NCBI GenBank assembly: GCA_030649735.1
Contig: JAUSFL010000023.1
Location: 15,698 to 79,697, forward strand
Reading direction: 5' to 3'
DNA length: 64,000 nucleotides
From: Candidatus Iainarchaeum sp.
GTDB taxonomy: Archaea; Iainarchaeota; Iainarchaeia; Iainarchaeales; UBA10191
Shown: positions 55,602-63,882 of the stretch, one piece after another
Layout: each line of letters begins with the position of its first letter
Position numbering within the stretch: position 1 is the first letter of the stretch
Notes under the pieces: model-generated
Seen by the model: only the letters and a program-made list of their open reading frames with translations
Told to the model about the DNA's origin: nothing
The model's database searches: none
Position numbers and translations under genes: made by a program

Positions 55602-55717
55602 GCCTTTAAAAAATTTGCCTCAAAAAGCCGGCTTTGGTTAGGTTTTTACCTTACCAAAAAGAAAACAATATTTAAATAGCAAGAGAATATTGTTAGTTGT
55701 GTGGGGGTTTTTCTAAA

Positions 55718-58579
55718 ATGGACAGTAAAAAATTTATCATATTATTCGCTGCCTTGATTTTTTCAGCGGGCTTTGCCTTGGCTGTTGATTCAAACGGTTC
55801 CGATTCAAACTCAGACAAGCCTGTTGCTTGCATTTGCACAATGGAGTACGCGCCAGTGTGCGGTTCTGATGGGAAAACCTATTCTAACGGTTGTGTTGCA
55901 AAATGCGCCGGAATAATTGATTTTAAGCCAGGCGCCTGCAATGACTCAATTCCTGAAGTGATTTATCCTTCATTTGGGGTTGACTTCAAGCTTTTCCAAA
56001 CCCAAACTGCTGTTTTGGAGAATTATAAGATTGCCCTCGCAAAAATTCTTGTTCCTATAGAAGTGCAATGCGTTGATGGCGTTTGCCCAGAAATAGCTTC
56101 ACAAGTCCAAATTATTTTGGAAGTCAGCAAAAAGTCTGACAATGGCTATGTTTCTGAAAAGGCTTACTTGGGAGAATATTCAGAGGCCGGCCTTTTAGGA
56201 ATCAAAATCCAGTCACGCGGTATAAATTCAGTTTCGGGATATGCTGTCTTGACTGTTTTCAAGGAAAACATCATGCCAGAGCCAATCAAAGCAGCTCTTG
56301 GCGAAGAATTCAAGCTTTTGCAATTGCAGCAAGCCAACATCCAGGATAACGGAAGCACTGCGATGAAGCTTGTTCTGGAAAGAATTGACAACTTGCACAT
56401 TGTGTGCATTAAGGCGCCTTGCCCGAATTATTCTGCAGTAATGACTGCAAGCATTGCAAATGACGGAATGTATTCTTTCAAAGTCCTTAATGGCTCCAGC
56501 TATTTCCTTGGAAATTACGTTGTTAACTTTACTTCCACTGACGGGACTTCAGGAAAGTTTGTTGTAAAGAAAATTTCAGACACTAACACAACTCCAGCAG
56601 ACATTTATGTCAATGTTGATGAATACTTCAAGCTTGTCGAAAGCCAGACAGCAATCTTTAAGACTGGGGAATTTTCAGTGACTCTTGCAGGCGTTGAAAA
56701 TACTGCAACATGCAGTGCAATAGGCTGTCCGCCTTCACAGTCAGTAGTAAAGATAGGCATAAATTCACTTAATGGGCTGCTTGGAAGCTCTTTAGTTACT
56801 TTAAAACAAGGCGAGAGCGCTGAAAGAAATGGCTTTTCAATAACTGTCGTGGGAATTGATTTTTCGGGAAAGACCGCAAAGTTTGTGATTTCAAAAATCC
56901 AGGAAAACCCTGTAGAAAAGACAGTTTATTTGAATGAAAAATTCAAGCTTGCTGAGAAGGAAAGCGCCCGCGTGTTAAGCGGTAATCAAAGATGCCCTCA
57001 AGGCGCAACCTGCATTGCGAGCGCAATGCCGGCGCGCGAAATAATGAAAATTAAGCTCTTGTCAATTAGCCAGTACAAATGCGCTGAAACCAGCACTAGC
57101 GGAGTTTCAGTGAAATGCATTGGAAGCAAGCCTTTTGCAAGAGTTGTGCTAGGCTATGAAGATGGCAATATTGGAACGGCAACTGAAACAACAATTAGTG
57201 AAGGCGGAAGCATCTGGTTCAATGGATTTGAAGTGAACTTGCTTGATGTTTCATTGCAAGCCCCAAATTCTGGAGTTTTCATTGTAAGGCAGCCGAGCAT
57301 TCCTGAATACATTAAAGCAAGCTTGGATGAAAAGTTTGAATTGAATCTATTAAGTTCTGGAGCAAATACTGCATTGATTGCTGGAGAGGGAATTTTTGTA
57401 AAGCTTGAAGGCCTTTCAAACGAATGCGTTCAGGCGCGTGCTGATGCCGGCAACCCACGTTATGCAAAAGTTTCAGTGTGGAAAGAATCTGACAATGCAT
57501 CGCAAGGATTTGGAATCAATGTTGGCGAGTCATTGAGCATTTACGGCCTGAAATTAAGCCTTTTGGGGACTACTTGCGGAAGCGCAATTTTCATTGCGGC
57601 CAAGGATTCAAACCCTGAAGTCATTAACGTGCATGTCGGAGAGCCTTTCAAATTGCAGAAAGACAAGGCTGCAAGGGTTTTAGAGGCAAACTTGAGGATT
57701 GATGTATTGAATTTGATTAATGTCTGCGCAAGCTGCGCTTCAACTTCTGACTCAAATGCGGTTGCATCTTGCGTTGGCGGGCTTTGCTATTCAAGCGTGC
57801 AATTCAGCGTGAGCAATTATGCATTCGAGCAGTCAAAGATTGGAACTACAGTCAGCACTACAGTAATAAACAGCACTACGGTTTCAACAACCGAGTCAAA
57901 CAGCACTTCAAGTGCTAGTAGTAGTGGCGGCGGTTCAGGAAGCGCTTTTATTGAAATTCCTCCAATGCCTTGGAAGACTTTCACTCTTTCAGCCGGAGAA
58001 AGCACTGAAGTTGGAGACTTTGAAATCAGGGTTTTGAATGTTAGTTCTGAAAGCGCTGAGTTTGAAGTCTTGAAAAAATCCACCGGGCAGTCCTTCAATT
58101 ATGTAATTAAGGCTGGCTGGAACTTGTTTTCAGTCCCTGGGAAGATTGATTCCGGAAGCAATAATTGCGAGAGCGGCAATTTCAAGCTTTTCGAGTATGA
58201 TTCAGCAGCAAAGAAATTCAATAGTGTTTCAGAGCCTTCTCCAGGAAAGGCATACTGGCTTTTTAATTCTGGAAAGTCTTGCGAAGCAAAGGCGACAATC
58301 AGGGATGCCGTTGCATTAAGCGGCCTGCCTTCCTTGAATGCCGGCTGGAATTTTGTCGCAATAGTTCCTGAAATGCTCGGAAGCAAAATCAGCGGGCTTG
58401 GGAACTGCAAGTTCAAGAGTGCTTTCTCTTGGAATGCTTCTTCAAAAATCTGGCAGAATGCATTGAACAAGAAGTTGGCAAGTGAAGACTTAGGGAGCGC
58501 AATTGTTGTATTCTCTGAAGGCGCTTGCTCTTTGGCGGGCGCTGTGGAGACTCAGCCCCCAATGCCTCCGAGCCCTTGA
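55718..58579 (+). CDS. large secreted protein with an N-terminal Kazal-type domain and six ~105-aa internal repeats, a Ser/Thr-rich linker and a C-terminal domain
   Basis: Signal peptide MDSKKFIILFAALIFSAGFALA. Kazal motif CICTMEYAPVCGSDGKTYSNGCVAKCAG. Repeat units begin I..xxxxExFKL (DFKLFQTQ, EEFKLLQLQ, EYFKLVESQ, EKFKLAEKE, EKFELNLLS, EPFKLQKDK). Ends QPPMPPSP. Confidence 0.75.
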   Translation: MDSKKFIILFAALIFSAGFALAVDSNGSDSNSDKPVACICTMEYAPVCGSDGKTYSNGCVAKCAGIIDFKPGACNDSIPEVIYPSFGVDFKLFQTQTAVLENYKIALAKILVPIEVQCVDGVCPEIASQVQIILEVSKKSDNGYVSEKAYLGEYSEAGLLGIKIQSRGINSVSGYAVLTVFKENIMPEPIKAALGEEFKLLQLQQANIQDNGSTAMKLVLERIDNLHIVCIKAPCPNYSAVMTASIANDGMYSFKVLNGSSYFLGNYVVNFTSTDGTSGKFVVKKISDTNTTPADIYVNVDEYFKLVESQTAIFKTGEFSVTLAGVENTATCSAIGCPPSQSVVKIGINSLNGLLGSSLVTLKQGESAERNGFSITVVGIDFSGKTAKFVISKIQENPVEKTVYLNEKFKLAEKESARVLSGNQRCPQGATCIASAMPAREIMKIKLLSISQYKCAETSTSGVSVKCIGSKPFARVVLGYEDGNIGTATETTISEGGSIWFNGFEVNLLDVSLQAPNSGVFIVRQPSIPEYIKASLDEKFELNLLSSGANTALIAGEGIFVKLEGLSNECVQARADAGNPRYAKVSVWKESDNASQGFGINVGESLSIYGLKLSLLGTTCGSAIFIAAKDSNPEVINVHVGEPFKLQKDKAARVLEANLRIDVLNLINVCASCASTSDSNAVASCVGGLCYSSVQFSVSNYAFEQSKIGTTVSTTVINSTTVSTTESNSTSSASSSGGGSGSAFIEIPPMPWKTFTLSAGESTEVGDFEIRVLNVSSESAEFEVLKKSTGQSFNYVIKAGWNLFSVPGKIDSGSNNCESGNFKLFEYDSAAKKFNSVSEPSPGKAYWLFNSGKSCEAKATIRDAVALSGLPSLNAGWNFVAIVPEMLGSKISGLGNCKFKSAFSWNASSKIWQNALNKKLASEDLGSAIVVFSEGACSLAGAVETQPPMPPSP

Positions 58580-59204: not shown

Positions 59205-59720
59205 TTATTGCATTATTCCGCTTTCGTCGTCTATTTGCTTTGCGATTTTTTTCGTTTTTTCGAAGACTTTGTTCACATCGGCTTCTAGCTCTTCGATTGT
59301 TCGGAGTATTGAGTTGCTTCTTACTCCGTAAAGCCTTCCGCGCTTTACTACAAGGCCGCTTCTTTGGAGGTTGTTCAATTGGTTTATTACTGCTCCGCGG
59401 GAAATCCCCATTTTTTTGGCCAGTTCAGAGCTTGAGAGCATTCCATGCTGTCCTGGCTCTTTGATTGAATTGTGGGAAGTGTTGAATAATTCCTTGAACA
59501 CTTGGCTTGTTGTTTTTTCCTTTCCTAAAGGCTCTAAAAGCCCAAAGCTTTTGCACAAGTAGTCTAATTCTTCCTCTACTTTGTTTGAGAATGGCGGTTC
59601 AATGCTTTTCACTGACAGTTCGAAAGAATGGACCCTTCTTGTTGGCTTTGGGAATGGCTTTGTTGTTATAAGGAAAGAGTTTTCAGGGGCATTCAATAGC
59701 CGTCTGTTTGTCGGATGCAT
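59205..59720 (-). CDS. winged-helix transcriptional regulator candidate, divergent from grpE
   Basis: C-terminal HTH LSSSELAKKMGISRGAVINQLNNLQRSGLVVKRGRLYGV. N-terminal ~80 aa unrecognised. Confidence 0.55.
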   Translation of the reverse strand: MHPTNRRLLNAPENSFLITTKPFPKPTRRVHSFELSVKSIEPPFSNKVEEELDYLCKSFGLLEPLGKEKTTSQVFKELFNTSHNSIKEPGQHGMLSSSELAKKMGISRGAVINQLNNLQRSGLVVKRGRLYGVRSNSILRTIEELEADVNKVFEKTKKIAKQIDDESGIMQ

Positions 59721-59811: not shown

Positions 59812-60585
59812 GTGTTTGAGAAAAAAAAAGAGCAAGCAAAGAAAGAAGATCCTAAAGAAAGCCCAGAGCCTAAAAGAATAACAATTGAAGAAGCTGTTGA
59901 AGACAACAAGGCCTTAATTGAGACTTTGCAAAGGCTTCAGGCAGACTTTGAAAACTTCAAGAAACGCGAGGAAAAAAACCGCGAAGAGTTCTCAAAATTC
60001 TGCACTGCAAGCATTTTCTTTGACCTGCTGGAAATAATGGATTCTTTTGAAAGCGCAATGCAAAAATGCACTCCAGACCAAAACGAGGCGTTAGAGCCGT
60101 TGTATTACCACTTGAAAAAATTCCTTGAAAAAAACAACGTAACCCAGTTTTCGGCATTGAATGAAATGTTCAATCCAGAACTGCATGAAGTGCTGCTTAC
60201 AGGATACAATTCCTACAAGGACGAAAACATTGTCCTGGAGGAAATAAAGAAAGGGTATTTTGTTTTTGACAAGGTCTTAAGGCACGCGCAAGTGAAAATA
60301 AACCAAAGGCCAGTGAAAAAAATCGAGGAAATAAAAAAAGAGCTAAAGGACCAATTGAACAAGCTTTCAGGGACTGAAGCAAGCGCGAAAAAAGAAAGGG
60401 AAGAGCAAAAAGGCAAGGACGCTGTTGCAGACAAGCTGTTCTCCAAAGAAAGCGCTTCTCCGCAAAATGAAGCAAAAGAAAACCAGCAAGCCAAAGAAAG
60501 CAATTCTCAAAATTCAGGCAATAATACTTCTCAAAAGGAAAGCAATTTGAATCCAGAAAACGGGGGTTCTCAAAATGCAAAATAA
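59812..60585 (+). CDS. grpE: GrpE nucleotide exchange factor with a low-complexity K/E/S/N-rich C-terminal extension
   Basis: LQADFENFKKREEKNREE (GrpE DNxRKR region) plus a conserved C-terminal beta-domain (GYFVFDKVLRHAQVKI). Tail QQAKESNSQNSGNNTSQ. Confidence 0.85.
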   Translation: MFEKKKEQAKKEDPKESPEPKRITIEEAVEDNKALIETLQRLQADFENFKKREEKNREEFSKFCTASIFFDLLEIMDSFESAMQKCTPDQNEALEPLYYHLKKFLEKNNVTQFSALNEMFNPELHEVLLTGYNSYKDENIVLEEIKKGYFVFDKVLRHAQVKINQRPVKKIEEIKKELKDQLNKLSGTEASAKKEREEQKGKDAVADKLFSKESASPQNEAKENQQAKESNSQNSGNNTSQKESNLNPENGGSQNAK

Positions 60586-61510
60586 TTTTAATACTCTGCA
60601 CGATGCTAATTTTGATTTAATCAATCAAATACAAAAAATCAGGGTGAATGGGAATTTGCAGACAATGCGAAAGCAAATAGGCTCTGAAAACTTAAAATCT
60701 CTATTAATTGCTTTCTACCCCAAATATAATATTACTGAGATTCAGGAAATTATTGGAGTTCCTGACTCTACTGTTGAAAGATGGCTCAAACAATTAGGGG
60801 TTGAATTAACGCGAAATCATATAACTAACTTAGTAGTTCCAGCAAATTTTGAAAGTTCTGTAGTTTTAACTGAAAGAAGCAAATCAACAAAAATTTCTGC
60901 AATAACTATTGATGAAGGTTTGTCTTATTTAGTTGGATTCTGCATTGGGGATGGTTCTGTGCAAAAATTCTGTATCGAAGTGTTCAATAAGGACTCTGGG
61001 ATGAAAGAGCATCTGGCTCAAGTAATGAAAAGGTACGGAAAAGTAGGCGAAAGCATAAGGCAAAATGGTTTGTGGAAGTTGAGATTATCAAGTGTGAAAA
61101 TAGCTGATTTGATAAAAAGAAATAAATCTATCAGACAAGATACTATTGATTATATTCTAACAAATGACAAATTAGCACGCCAGTTCTTGGCTGGGCTTTG
61201 GGATGCTGAAGGGAGTGTTCTCAAGCAGGGAAAATATTTCCACATTTACTTATATAATTCGGATAAAAACCTAATAGACAATATTTCAGAGTTTTTGAAT
61301 TCGGTCGGAATTGAAAATTCAATTATTCCCATGAAAAAAAGAAATAAAGAATATAATCTAAACGGAAGAATAATTGTGCCAAGAAAAACAGTTTATCGTC
61401 TTGGAATCCCTAAAAAGCATTTTAAACAATGGGGTGAACTGATTGGCTTGCACTTAAAACACAGTAAAAAAGCAATTATGGTTAAAGAAATTTTGAAGGG
61501 GGATTGTTAA
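60575..61510 (+). CDS. free-standing double-motif LAGLIDADG homing endonuclease (mobile element) between grpE and dnaK
   Basis: Two LAGLIDADG motifs: LSYLVGFCIGDGSV and FLAGLWDAEGSV. N-terminal HTH-like segment (ITEIQEIIGVPDSTVERWLKQLGV). Overlaps the grpE end by 11 nt and abuts the dnaK ATG. Confidence 0.75.
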   Translation: MQNNFNTLHDANFDLINQIQKIRVNGNLQTMRKQIGSENLKSLLIAFYPKYNITEIQEIIGVPDSTVERWLKQLGVELTRNHITNLVVPANFESSVVLTERSKSTKISAITIDEGLSYLVGFCIGDGSVQKFCIEVFNKDSGMKEHLAQVMKRYGKVGESIRQNGLWKLRLSSVKIADLIKRNKSIRQDTIDYILTNDKLARQFLAGLWDAEGSVLKQGKYFHIYLYNSDKNLIDNISEFLNSVGIENSIIPMKKRNKEYNLNGRIIVPRKTVYRLGIPKKHFKQWGELIGLHLKHSKKAIMVKEILKGDC

Positions 61511-63403
61511 ATGAGTAAGATCATCGGCATCGACCTCGGGACTTCCAATTCTGCTGCTTCAGTTCTTGAAGCCGGAAAGCCGCGAATCATTCCCTCAGCC
61601 GAAGGAATGAGCCTTTATGGCAAGGCATTTCCAAGCGTTGTCGCTTTCACTAAAGACGGGCAAATGCTTGTCGGAGAGCCTGCAAAAAGGCAGGCAGTGT
61701 CAAACCCTTCAGGAACCTTCACTGCTTTCAAGAGAAAAATGGGAACTGACTTCAAATATTCCGTGAATGGAAAAGAATACAATCCCCAGCAATTAAGCGC
61801 TTTCCTTCTGCAAAAAATCAAGAAAGACGCCGAGGCTTTTTTTGGGGAAAAAGTGGAAAAGGCAGTAATCACTGTTCCCGCATACTTTGACGACAACCAA
61901 CGGCAGGCCACTAAAGACGCCGGCTTGATTGCCGGGCTTGAAGTCATTAGGATAATCAACGAGCCAACGGCAGCGGCCTTGGCTTATGGCCTTGACAAGC
62001 AGTCCAAAGAGCAAAAAATCATAGTGTTTGACCTTGGCGGTGGAACTTTAGACGTTACTGTAATGGAATTTGGCGGCGGAGTCTTTGAAGTGAAATCGAC
62101 TTCTGGAGACACTCAGTTGGGCGGAACAGACATGGATGCTTCGCTGACTGACTTTTTGGTTGCAGAATTCAAGAAAATCGAAGGCATTGACTTGAAGAAT
62201 GACAATGTTGCAATGCAGCGATTGAAGGAAGCCGCAGAGCGGGCAAAAATTGAATTGTCAACAACAGTCACCACAGAAATCAACTTGCCTTACTTGACTG
62301 CGAACGCTAGTGGCCCAAAGCATTTCACCCTATCATTGAACCGCGCAAAACTGGAAGAGATTGTAATGCCGTTGATCAAGCGCTGTGAAAAGCCTTTAAG
62401 GCAGGCATTGGCTGACGCAAAGCTTGAAGCCTCTGAAGTGGACCGCATTGTGCTTGTAGGAGGCCCTACAAGAATGCCTTCAGTGCAAAAATTCATTGAA
62501 ACCCAATTGGGAAAAATTCCTGAGCGCGGCGTAGATCCAATGGAAGCAGTCGCAATTGGAGCTGCAATTCAGGCTGGAGTTTTGGCCGGGGAAGTAAAGG
62601 ACATTTTGCTTTTGGACGTGACTCCATTAAGCCTTGGAGTTGAAACAATGGGCAGTGTTTTGACAAAGCTCATTGAAAGAAACACGACAATTCCAACGCG
62701 CAAGAGCCAGATTTTTTCAACTGCAGCCGATAACCAAACCGCGGTTGACATTCACGTTCTGCAGGGAGAAAGGCCAATGGCGCAGGACAATAAAACTCTC
62801 GGGCGGTTCCAGCTTGTCGGGCTGCCGCCAGCGCCAAGGGGCATTCCGCAAATTGAAGTCTCTTTCGACATTGACGCCAATGGAATAGTGCATGTTGCAG
62901 CAAAAGACCTTGGCACTGGAAAGACCCAAAGCATTAAAATCGTGGCTTCGCAAAAGCTTTCTGAAGATGAAATAAAAAGAATGCAAAAAGAGGCCGAAGA
63001 GCACGCCTCAGAAGACGAGAAAAGAAAGCAGGGCGCTGAAATAATAAATTCTGCAGACTCAATGGTTTACAGCACTGAAAGATTATTGAAAGACTTTGAG
63101 GGAAAAGTCTCGGCAGAAGAAATTGACGCCATTAAAAAGAAAATCGAGGAATTGAAGTTTTTGCTAAAGCCTGAAAAGAAAGATTCTGCAATAATCAAGT
63201 CAAAGTTTGAAGAGCTTCAGTCCTTGGTCCAGCAGGCCTCGACAGAGCTTTACCAAAAGGCCTCGCAAAATTCGCAGGATGCCGAGCAGCCCCAAGATTC
63301 TCAAGGCCAAGGCCAAGCGCAAGATTCTGGAAAAGGCTCAAGCTCCAGCCACGACAATGCAGTTGACGCAGACTTCAAGGTAGAAGACGACAAGAAAAAG
63401 TGA
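61511..63403 (+). CDS. dnaK: molecular chaperone DnaK (Hsp70)
   Basis: [16 protein letters not shown] (Hsp70 signature 1), [13 protein letters not shown], full ATPase and substrate-binding domains. 630 aa. Confidence 0.95.
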
Positions 63404-63453: not shown

Positions 63454-63882
63454 ATGGCTAAAGATTTTTATGAATTGCTTGGAGTTCCAAAAAATGCAAC
63501 AATAGGGCAAATTAAGCAAGTATACAGAAGGCTTGCGAAAAGATATCACCCCGACACTAGTAGAACCAGTGAAACTGCAGCAATTTTTAGAGAAATAAAC
63601 ACAGCGTATTCGGTACTTTTAGATCCTCAAAAACGTGCTGTCTACGACCGAAATTTGAATTTTTCGCAGGAACCGCCTCATAGGGCTAAAGAAAAGCCGA
63701 GAGATGTGGACGCAGTTGTTAGAGAAGGACTTAAAGTTGCTAGAGAAGTTTTGGAAAGAAAGAGGAGAGAGAAAGAAGCTACTAGCGCGCGCGATGAAGC
63801 ACTTATTAAAGAAGCGCTTAGGCTCGCGAAGGAACATTCAAGAAAAAAAAATTTAGGTGCTTATAAATTTAGGCCCAAATGA
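63454..63882 (+). CDS. J-domain-only protein (DnaJ-like co-chaperone fragment/paralog)
   Basis: DFYELLGVPKNAT...YRRLAKRYHPDT (HPD motif). No Gly/Phe or Cys-rich zinc-finger region. Basic C-terminus. Confidence 0.7.
   Translation: MAKDFYELLGVPKNATIGQIKQVYRRLAKRYHPDTSRTSETAAIFREINTAYSVLLDPQKRAVYDRNLNFSQEPPHRAKEKPRDVDAVVREGLKVAREVLERKRREKEATSARDEALIKEALRLAKEHSRKKNLGAYKFRPK

Follow-up and report, generated by a model that had tools for sequence, protein, structure and literature searches.

Cellular chromosomes usually tolerate homing endonuclease genes because these are spliced out as part of an intron or intein, and free-standing genes of this type are found mainly in phages and organelles. Here we describe a free-standing LAGLIDADG homing endonuclease gene that lies directly in front of the chaperone gene dnaK in a 64,000-nucleotide (nt) stretch of DNA from Candidatus Iainarchaeum sp., the whole of which we refer to as the window. 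Several described systems resemble this locus in part. In fungal mitochondria, the elements known as mORFs (in atp6 of Allomyces macrogynus and in atp6, atp9, cox2, and nad3 of Glomus) consist of a LAGLIDADG or GIY-YIG open reading frame (ORF) that brings a foreign replacement C-terminus to the gene it enters, with the native end left behind as a relic (PMC3630166). The free-standing endonuclease genes of phage T4 (seg and mob), which are the subjects of "intronless homing," are promoter-less cassettes lying in the orientation of their host (PMC2988022). Within the LAGLIDADG class, yeast HO is a known free-standing gene (PMC3384342), the other known free-standing LAGLIDADG genes in the literature are organellar, and the LAGLIDADG enzymes described from bacteria of the candidate phyla radiation (CPR) lie in rRNA insertions (PMC11270868). 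LAGLIDADG genes at the starts of dnaK or metG in DPANN archaea or CPR bacteria were not described in the full-text literature that we searched, with most subscription journals lying outside its coverage. The reading that we favor for the window gene, with a probability of roughly 0.68, is that it is an old but intact member of a family of selfish, promoter-less homing cassettes that carry a helix-turn-helix (HTH) module and are specific for the 5′ end of dnaK.

The gene occupies positions 60575..61510 of the + strand, starts with ATG, and encodes 311 amino acids (aa). Its start overlaps the 3′ end of grpE (59812..60585, + strand; Pfam GrpE, E 1.3e-30) by 11 nt, and its TAA stop codon (61508-61510) abuts the ATG of dnaK (Hsp70; 61511..63403, + strand; Pfam HSP70, E 1.6e-227) with a spacer of 0; the 5′ boundary of dnaK defines the position of the element. 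The Shine-Dalgarno-like motif of dnaK, GAAGGGGGA, sits inside the 3′ end of the endonuclease ORF next to the stop codon (61496..61510, + strand), and in relatives the variable last endonuclease codons overlap a GGAGG motif just 5′ of the dnaK ATG. This 3′ tail is probably host- or cassette-derived sequence that is read through by the ORF. A terminator scan between grpE and dnaK found none on the + strand, and a scan for sigma-70 promoters, which does not cover archaeal promoters, gave matches at chance level. An earlier note on this DNA, made from its letters, had described a free-standing ORF with two LAGLIDADG motifs and an N-terminal HTH-like segment, an 11-nt overlap with grpE, a close junction with dnaK, and an operon whose polarity is kept, and all of this is borne out, with the endonuclease gene in the orientation of grpE and dnaK. 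Two further points that it raised, presence/absence polymorphism at the grpE-dnaK junctions of relatives and catalytic acids in both motifs, also held up, as described below. The target-site duplication that it had envisaged at the insertion borders is absent, since a search of the borders for target-site duplications or terminal inverted repeats returned only short, chance-level repeats. Neither of these is expected in homing.

The arrangement has much in common with that of the T4 seg and mob genes, which also lie between conserved genes in their neighbors' orientation, rely on host transcription, are patchy among relatives, have their target in an adjacent conserved gene, and bring about co-conversion of flanking sequence. 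The T4 enzymes are of the GIY-YIG or HNH type, are phage-borne, and cut hundreds to thousands of bp from their own gene, whereas the window enzyme is a cellular LAGLIDADG protein whose inferred cut site would lie within ~30 bp of the insertion.

The protein itself looks like an intact enzyme. Pfam assigns it to LAGLIDADG_3 in two stretches (E 3.5e-16) and to Hom_end (1.6e-7), and NCBI lists the identical protein, from a metagenome-assembled genome of Candidatus Diapherotrites, under the name LAGLIDADG family homing endonuclease. NCBIfam holds no model specific for the dnaK-linked endonuclease family, and its matches, all far below cut-off, are to the endonuclease portions of intein-bearing proteins only. 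The first motif, LVGFCIGDGSV (aa 119-129; 60929..60961, + strand), contains Asp126 (60950-60952), and the second, LAGLWDAEGSV (aa 205-215; 61187..61219, + strand), contains Glu212 (61208-61210). An AlphaFold2 model made from an alignment of 31 sequences has a mean predicted local distance difference test score of 88, with values above 94 in the core. When this model was compared with the PDB by Foldseek, the top 33 matches were all I-DmoI (best E 6e-10), with a template modeling score of 0.64-0.73 normalized to I-DmoI over ~196 aligned columns. The next matches were PI-PfuI, I-Tsp061I, and PI-SceI, and the regulator WhiA (3hyi, E 1.8e-6) came lower. With the endonuclease domains of these enzymes the window protein has two LAGLIDADG helices in common, and in a HMMER alignment to I-DmoI, with which it is ~23% identical, its acidic pair D126 and E212 falls on the metal-binding residues D21 and E117, while N138-K139 falls on Q42-K43. 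The lysine equivalent to K43 (K139) is at least 90% conserved in the family.

In the alignment of 31 sequences there are 28 invariant columns, the active site included, and G125-D126-G127, D210, E212, and G213 are among the invariant positions. All 33 dnaK-linked loci keep both motifs, as GF..GDG (33 of 33) and WD[AS]EG (33 of 33), and none of the 33 is a disrupted copy. From the intactness of every copy and the 28 invariant columns, we conclude that selection acts on the protein, and the window ORF probably encodes an intact, active, single-chain LAGLIDADG homing endonuclease.

The window enzyme differs from the I-DmoI group in that it is neither intron- nor intein-encoded, in that its inferred target is the start of a protein gene and not rDNA or an intein site, and in that it has an HTH-containing N-terminal extension of ~110 aa. 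In the AlphaFold2 model this accessory region (aa 1-112; 60575..60910, + strand), delimited by predicted secondary structure and weak HTH matches, consists of five helices that include the HTH, followed by three strands, and it lies outside the I-DmoI-like core. The HTH falls at aa 50-73 (60722-60793, + strand), where the Pfam matches to HTH_23, HTH_28, and MerR_1 are all weak and below threshold. The family alignment contains a conserved N-terminal block, YPK..I.EIE.I.GIPDSTL..WFK. We predict from the model that aa 1-112 form an extra DNA-binding module that I-DmoI does not have.

Relatives of the gene are found at the same place. A word-indexed protein search returned 68 homologues of 304-351 aa with 41-62% identity, the named sources being Diapherotrites and Woesearchaeota, and a profile search of 1.84 billion cluster representatives gave 17, 88, and 1079 matches at E thresholds of 1e-30, 1e-10, and 1e-3, respectively. 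By these sequence matches, the dnaK-linked genes are a compact family within a large superfamily. Viral contigs contained only 7 remote matches (24-27% identity), with no sign of a viral reservoir. In every member with downstream DNA, dnaK follows directly (31 of 31 distinct loci, the window included), and the distance from the endonuclease stop to the dnaK ATG ranges from -8 to +20 nt across all dnaK-linked loci. The gene on the upstream side is usually grpE, and it is a DUF3467 gene instead in L002, L097, and L101. Because the upstream gene varies in this way, the position of the family is anchored to the start of dnaK and not to grpE. The order grpE-endonuclease-dnaK was also found in an independent assembly (Logan SRR13727527, L171), and the same arrangement recurs in more than 30 other assemblies of relatives.

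The gene is nevertheless absent from most of the species closest to the window. We scanned one genome per GTDB species with the window DnaK and examined the 80 closest loci (65-75% identity), nearly all of which are labeled DPANN archaea. The endonuclease gene is present in 4 of these 80 species representatives (L014, L023, L060, and L061), and in the remaining 76 either grpE abuts dnaK or ordinary small genes lie between them (CxxCxxCC, DUF3467, CYTH, HAD). The long grpE-dnaK spacers of the non-carriers contain such ordinary genes and no endonuclease genes. On a DnaK tree with 95 leaves, the 19 carriers are scattered, at least 14 changes of state are required, and the nearest neighbor is a non-carrier for 13 of the 19. 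Two non-carriers preserve traces of a lost gene. In L039, the interval that separates the grpE stop from the ribosome-binding site of dnaK retains ~95 nt of the 5′ end of the endonuclease gene (KDLLNQIKEIKIDKGNFQTIK), including a 17-nt run (GGTAATTTTCAAACTAT) identical to carrier L023 of a neighboring clade. In L028, the sequence matches its sister L086 at 85-96% upstream of and into the endonuclease gene, after which the alignment skips ~900 nt and resumes 11 nt before dnaK. As read from these alignments, both loci are deletion remnants of the endonuclease gene.

An indication of how the gene may enter its site comes from a second, vestigial dnaK start in some relatives. The endonuclease ORF of L086 begins MAKVIGIDL, followed by DSTEKE, and that of L088 begins MEKISGIDL, followed by TPEN, so that the first nine residues of each are those of DnaK. 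L028 keeps the same DnaK-start relic as L086. With a position-specific scoring matrix (PSSM) for the DnaK N-terminus, the three relics score 12.4 (L086), 5.0 (L088), and 12.4 (L028), as compared with a maximum of -6.3 over 39,226 reverse-strand windows. The relic codons of L086 (ATG GCG AAA GTA ATA GGA ATC GAT TTG) are of the type seen in non-carriers, and the functional dnaK of the same locus is recoded (ATG AGT AAA ACT ATA GGC ATA GAC CTC), with residues 2 and 4 differing from the relic. In L086 the relic breaks off behind codon 9 (nt ~27), midway through the stretch that is recoded in carriers (nt 13-33). Nucleotide alignment found a comparable metG relic (L127, below) and missed the dnaK relic because its two copies are recoded, and the protein PSSM was needed to detect it.

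The functional dnaK start of carriers is distinctive as well. In carriers, dnaK is synonymously recoded around codons 5-11, with carrier-specific conserved codons GACCTCGGCAC, and the consensus of the cassette-free dnaK 5′ region in related DPANN genomes is ATAATTGGAATTGATTTAGGAACATCA, a part of which is given by ATGGCAAAAATAATTGGAATTGATTTAGGAACATCAAAC. In the window, the corresponding segment (dnaK nt 13-39; 61523..61549, + strand) has the carrier-type recoded form in the comparison of carriers with non-carriers and is the inferred former target region. Between carriers and their nearest non-carriers, the first 36 nt, counted from the I-G-I-D-L-G-T codons, show an excess divergence over the distal rate of 0.131, as compared with 0.045 for pairs of non-carriers with equal distal divergence (Mann-Whitney p 1.4e-4). 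No excess is present in nt 36-180 of the carrier/non-carrier pairs. Carriers prefer GAC CTN GGC and non-carriers GAT TTA GGA ACA, and this shift occurs despite the lower distal G+C content at third codon positions (GC3) of the carriers (0.34 vs. 0.41). In a regression with distal GC3 and translational coupling as covariates, in which phylogenetic non-independence is not fully removed, carriers still have 1.73 more G/C over the eight synonymous sites scored (p 5e-5). The idea that coupling by itself accounts for the shift in codons is thus partly borne out (+0.63) but does not suffice, the carrier effect remaining after coupling is controlled for.

These observations can be put together in the following mechanism. 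The enzyme would recognize ~20 bp within the codons for the Hsp70 phosphate-1 motif (I-G-I-D-L-G-T, dnaK nt ~13-39) and cut alleles that are free of the cassette. Repair off a cassette-bearing allele would then bring in not only the endonuclease gene but also a Shine-Dalgarno sequence and a start codon, along with the synonymously recoded first ~9 codons of dnaK, and the old dnaK start would remain as a relic at or before the start of the endonuclease gene. The insertion would destroy the cut site, and dnaK would stay functional. Transcription of the cassette would be together with grpE and dnaK, and its translation would be by coupling, through the overlap with the grpE stop and through its own stop abutting the dnaK ATG. 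Copies would be lost by deletion and regained over time, which would give the patchy distribution. The anatomy of such a cassette would be, from 5′ to 3′, a relic of the 5′ end of the host gene, the HTH-LAGLIDADG ORF, a ribosome-binding site with a divergent functional 5′ end, and the rest of the host gene. Cleavage activity, the exact target, ongoing homing, and co-transcription are what we infer from comparison of the loci, and the window's own copy would have arisen by 5′-end homing of this kind, with its relic eroded past recognition.

This anatomy is a mirror image of that of the mORFs, in which an endonuclease ORF is likewise found in a protein gene without an intron or intein, with a divergent replacement end, a relic nearby, and largely synonymous differences between the two. 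The dnaK family differs in that the duplicated end is the 5′ end (the start and the first 9-13 codons) and not the 3′ end, in that it and its sister families are hosted by the chromosomes of DPANN archaea and CPR bacteria and not by organelles, and in that its enzyme has the HTH extension. The dnaK relic is also clear only in some members, the window not being one of them.

More distant relatives of the enzyme are found at the starts of other genes. A metagenome scan gave 50 remote relatives (23-32% identity) whose matches reach into the N-terminal region, and of the 39 that we examined, 33 are placed at the beginning of a housekeeping gene, at distances of -58 to +38 nt. The gene is that for methionyl-tRNA synthetase (MetRS; metG) in 26 cases, YebC in 4, NifU/IscU in 2, and UbiA in 1. 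All 33 keep the catalytic D/E pair, which is retained in 37-38 of the 39. The metG-linked family comprises more than 465 clusters, and its named sources are CPR bacteria (Pacebacteria, Patescibacteria) and one Diapherotrites archaeon. Near-perfect relics of the MetRS N-terminus (KKFYITTAIDY) are present in 5 of 20 metG-linked loci, 19-250 nt upstream of the endonuclease start, with PSSM scores of 25-34 that equal those of genuine MetRS starts. The relic of L127 has its own ATG and matches the functional metG start at the DNA level (z 4.9).

We considered whether the window gene stands for a class of prokaryotic homing cassettes that has not been described, widespread in DPANN and CPR, which enters essential genes (dnaK, metG, yebC, iscU, ubiA) within their first 9-13 codons, captures or displaces the start, and brings a recoded 5′ end; we rate the chances of this broader proposal as even. 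The rRNA insertions of CPR bacteria involve the same class of enzyme proliferating in ultra-small prokaryotes with reduced genomes, and they differ in being intron-like and removed from the transcript, whereas the window gene is a separate ORF at the start of a protein gene. What appears to be new here is the locus-specific family and a proposed 5′-end replacement architecture common to CPR and DPANN; taken singly, the gene belongs to an enzyme class that is already annotated.

Some of the remote relatives have further peculiarities. In three of the 26 metG-linked loci an endonuclease-like region and MetRS form one ORF (L118:229-2661, L121:4509-6980, and L123:239-2272; 810, 823, and 677 aa). 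Either the stop codon of the endonuclease has been lost, so that it is fused to the N-terminus of MetRS, or the sequence or the genetic code used to translate it is at fault. An in-frame peptide, (F/I)Y(I/K)(V/D)AL(F/L)NY, recurs just 5′ of metG-linked endonuclease starts (L127:640-678, L130, L154, L157, L128, and L145) and looks like an older, decayed relic of the MetRS N-terminus. The presence of both a decayed and a fresh relic in L127 suggests repeated insertions. Two remote relatives (L138:162-1187 and L151:4770-5795) do not stop before a gene start but reach 4 nt into the 3′ end of a convergent thermosome/Cpn60 gene, and they may represent a different mode of insertion.

The closest homologue of the window endonuclease is only 62% identical, and GC3 is without exception lower in the endonuclease genes than in dnaK (mean 0.23 vs. 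0.34), although the two vary together (r 0.76). Because of these two observations, we consider the residence of the gene in the window to be old, and the "recent" insertion that the earlier note had proposed is not upheld. The G+C content of the window ORF (~0.32, as compared with 0.39 in grpE and 0.47 in dnaK) was considered as a mark of recent arrival and rejected, low G+C being a family-wide trait that is correlated with host GC3. Distances between endonucleases correlate with distances between the corresponding DnaK proteins (Mantel r 0.46, with 0 of 5000 permutations as high), and the two trees have their major clades in common, with nearest neighbors that differ locally. Synonymous sites are saturated at the 33-60% protein divergence found here.

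A number of observations weigh against the homing cassette as we have described it. The second basic residue of I-DmoI, K130, is not conserved, the aligned position being Ser/Thr; a basic residue at 216-217 is common in the family, and its match to the role of K130 is not structurally verified. No DnaK-start relic is detectable in the window by PSSM or nucleotide alignment, and the dnaK relic is confined to one subclade (L086, L088, and L028). Some carriers have dnaK codons like those of non-carriers, and tight translational coupling, which shifts codons the same way in non-carriers, has an effect of +0.63 in the regression (p 0.07). No two endonucleases are more than 67% identical, with no near-identical copies in divergent hosts, and their distances correlate with those of DnaK, so that vertical descent with many losses explains much of the pattern. 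An exact-protein look-up of the window DnaK, seeking a cassette-free allele from the same population, gave no record. The trees were made by neighbor joining only, and the metagenome loci had been chosen for carrying the endonuclease gene.

One alternative is a former homing endonuclease that is now stranded, that is, an old invasion that is inherited vertically, is immobile, and is kept since its 3′ end provides the ribosome-binding site and coupling for dnaK, with only precise deletions tolerated. The distance to the closest homologue, the broadly congruent trees, the GC3 ameliorated toward that of the host, the eroded relic, and the dnaK Shine-Dalgarno sequence inside the ORF are all what such a history would leave, and T4 segG, in which promoters for gene 32 are located, offers a precedent (PMC2988022). 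Linkage to the signals of dnaK, however, would not keep an ORF of 311 codons, and the intact copies at all 33 loci and the invariant columns, which extend to the active site, imply selection on the protein. Losses by clean deletion do occur (L028 and L039). We regard the stranded gene as unlikely, and it is the best of the alternatives to an intact homing cassette.

Somewhat less likely still is a domesticated DNA-binding regulator of the hsp70 operon, acting on transcription or translation by binding near the dnaK start in the manner of WhiA or of I-TevI autorepression. An HTH fused to a LAGLIDADG core is found in WhiA (PMC3384342), the window gene is embedded in an operon with tight coupling, it has long co-diversified with DnaK and has a composition adapted to its host, and it might bind to the carrier-specific conserved codons GACCTCGGCAC with which dnaK begins in these loci. 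WhiA (DUF199), a domesticated regulator of Gram-positive bacteria, has the HTH at the C-terminus of its double LAGLIDADG scaffold, is universal in its clade, and has lost the catalytic residues (PMC3384342), whereas the window family has an N-terminal HTH and an invariant catalytic D/E pair and is only sporadically present (~5% of related species). The 76 of 80 close species that lack the gene keep the operon and the divergent winged-HTH gene in front of it, relatives of the enzyme precede metG, yebC, iscU, and ubiA, which have no common regulation, and deletion remnants and host-gene relics are hallmarks of insertion. The "domesticated derivative" that the earlier note had offered as a second possibility is not supported in view of the same facts, namely the invariant D126 and E212, the absence from ~95% of close relatives, and the sister families in front of unrelated housekeeping genes. 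The loss of catalytic residues and the universal presence that the note had named as signs of domestication, and the assembly artefact for which it had allowed, are none of them what we found. Our conclusion is that the endonuclease gene is of a mobile kind and is neither recent nor domesticated.

That the gene is an artefact of assembly or binning, or that an enzyme encoded in an intron or intein has been mistaken for a free-standing one, is very improbable and, as far as sequence data allow, refuted: the source is a metagenome-assembled genome and the G+C content of the ORF stands below its flanks (0.39-0.47), but the junctions are the same in the independent assembly and in more than 30 relatives and therefore no assembly artefact, low G+C is family-wide and tracks the host, a scan of the 64-kb window at the Rfam gathering threshold found no RNA family (no tRNA-like, rRNA, or riboswitch match) and therefore no intron at the locus, and the ORF has its own start and stop, is not in frame within grpE or dnaK, and, unlike intein-encoded endonucleases, has no in-frame host insertion, no Hint splicing blocks, and only endonuclease-domain families in Pfam, with no intein splicing domain.

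The surrounding genes have features of their own. The window GrpE is 257 aa long, as compared with 178-200 aa in relatives; its GrpE domain ends at ~aa 165, and the tail of ~90 aa (60300-60585) is rich in K/E/Q/S/N, internally repetitive, and runs into the endonuclease start. This tail may be read-through into a former spacer or relic sequence. Upstream of grpE and divergent from it is a winged-HTH (MarR-like) gene (59205..59720, - strand; Pfam MarR_2, HTH_11), which is present in most of the loci L004-L113 with or without the endonuclease gene and is a candidate regulator of the heat-shock operon. After dnaK, the window encodes a J-domain protein of only 142 aa (63454-63882, + strand), and relatives have at this position a DnaJ of 360-373 aa with the DnaJ_C and CXXCXGXG zinc-finger domains. 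Farther upstream (55697-58579, + strand) is a repetitive, secreted-looking protein of 960 aa with an N-terminal Kazal-type protease-inhibitor motif, which is unusual for an archaeon; the Kazal_1 (Pfam) assignment comes from the precomputed annotation of L171. In many hsp70 operons of Woesearchaeota, grpE and dnaK are separated by two to four additional small genes (L009, L012, L015, L018, L019, L026, L032, L035, L037, L067, L069, and L072). Among them are genes for a CxxCxxCC (PF03692) protein, a DUF3467 protein, a protein of ~110 aa without a family, and sometimes a CYTH protein, which suggests that the chaperone operon has expanded in a lineage-specific way.

The locus points to a third solution, in archaeal and CPR chromosomes, to the problem that introns and inteins otherwise solve: the element lies where an essential gene begins, is expressed through host transcription and coupling, and probably makes that gene whole again by supplying a recoded 5′ end. 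If the gene is the homing cassette that we propose, this would explain why the genes targeted are those with their most conserved motif at the extreme N-terminus, such as the Hsp70 phosphate-1 loop and, in MetRS, the stretch immediately preceding the HIGH motif. The family would also provide meganuclease scaffolds with predictable targets and a natural library of HTH-LAGLIDADG proteins whose targets can be read from the adjacent relic. For the hosts, it would be evidence for homologous gene flow among DPANN archaea, where recombination is hard to observe. The cassettes would shuffle the 5′ ends of core genes between lineages, and the 5′ ends of marker genes like dnaK may differ in history from the rest of the gene.

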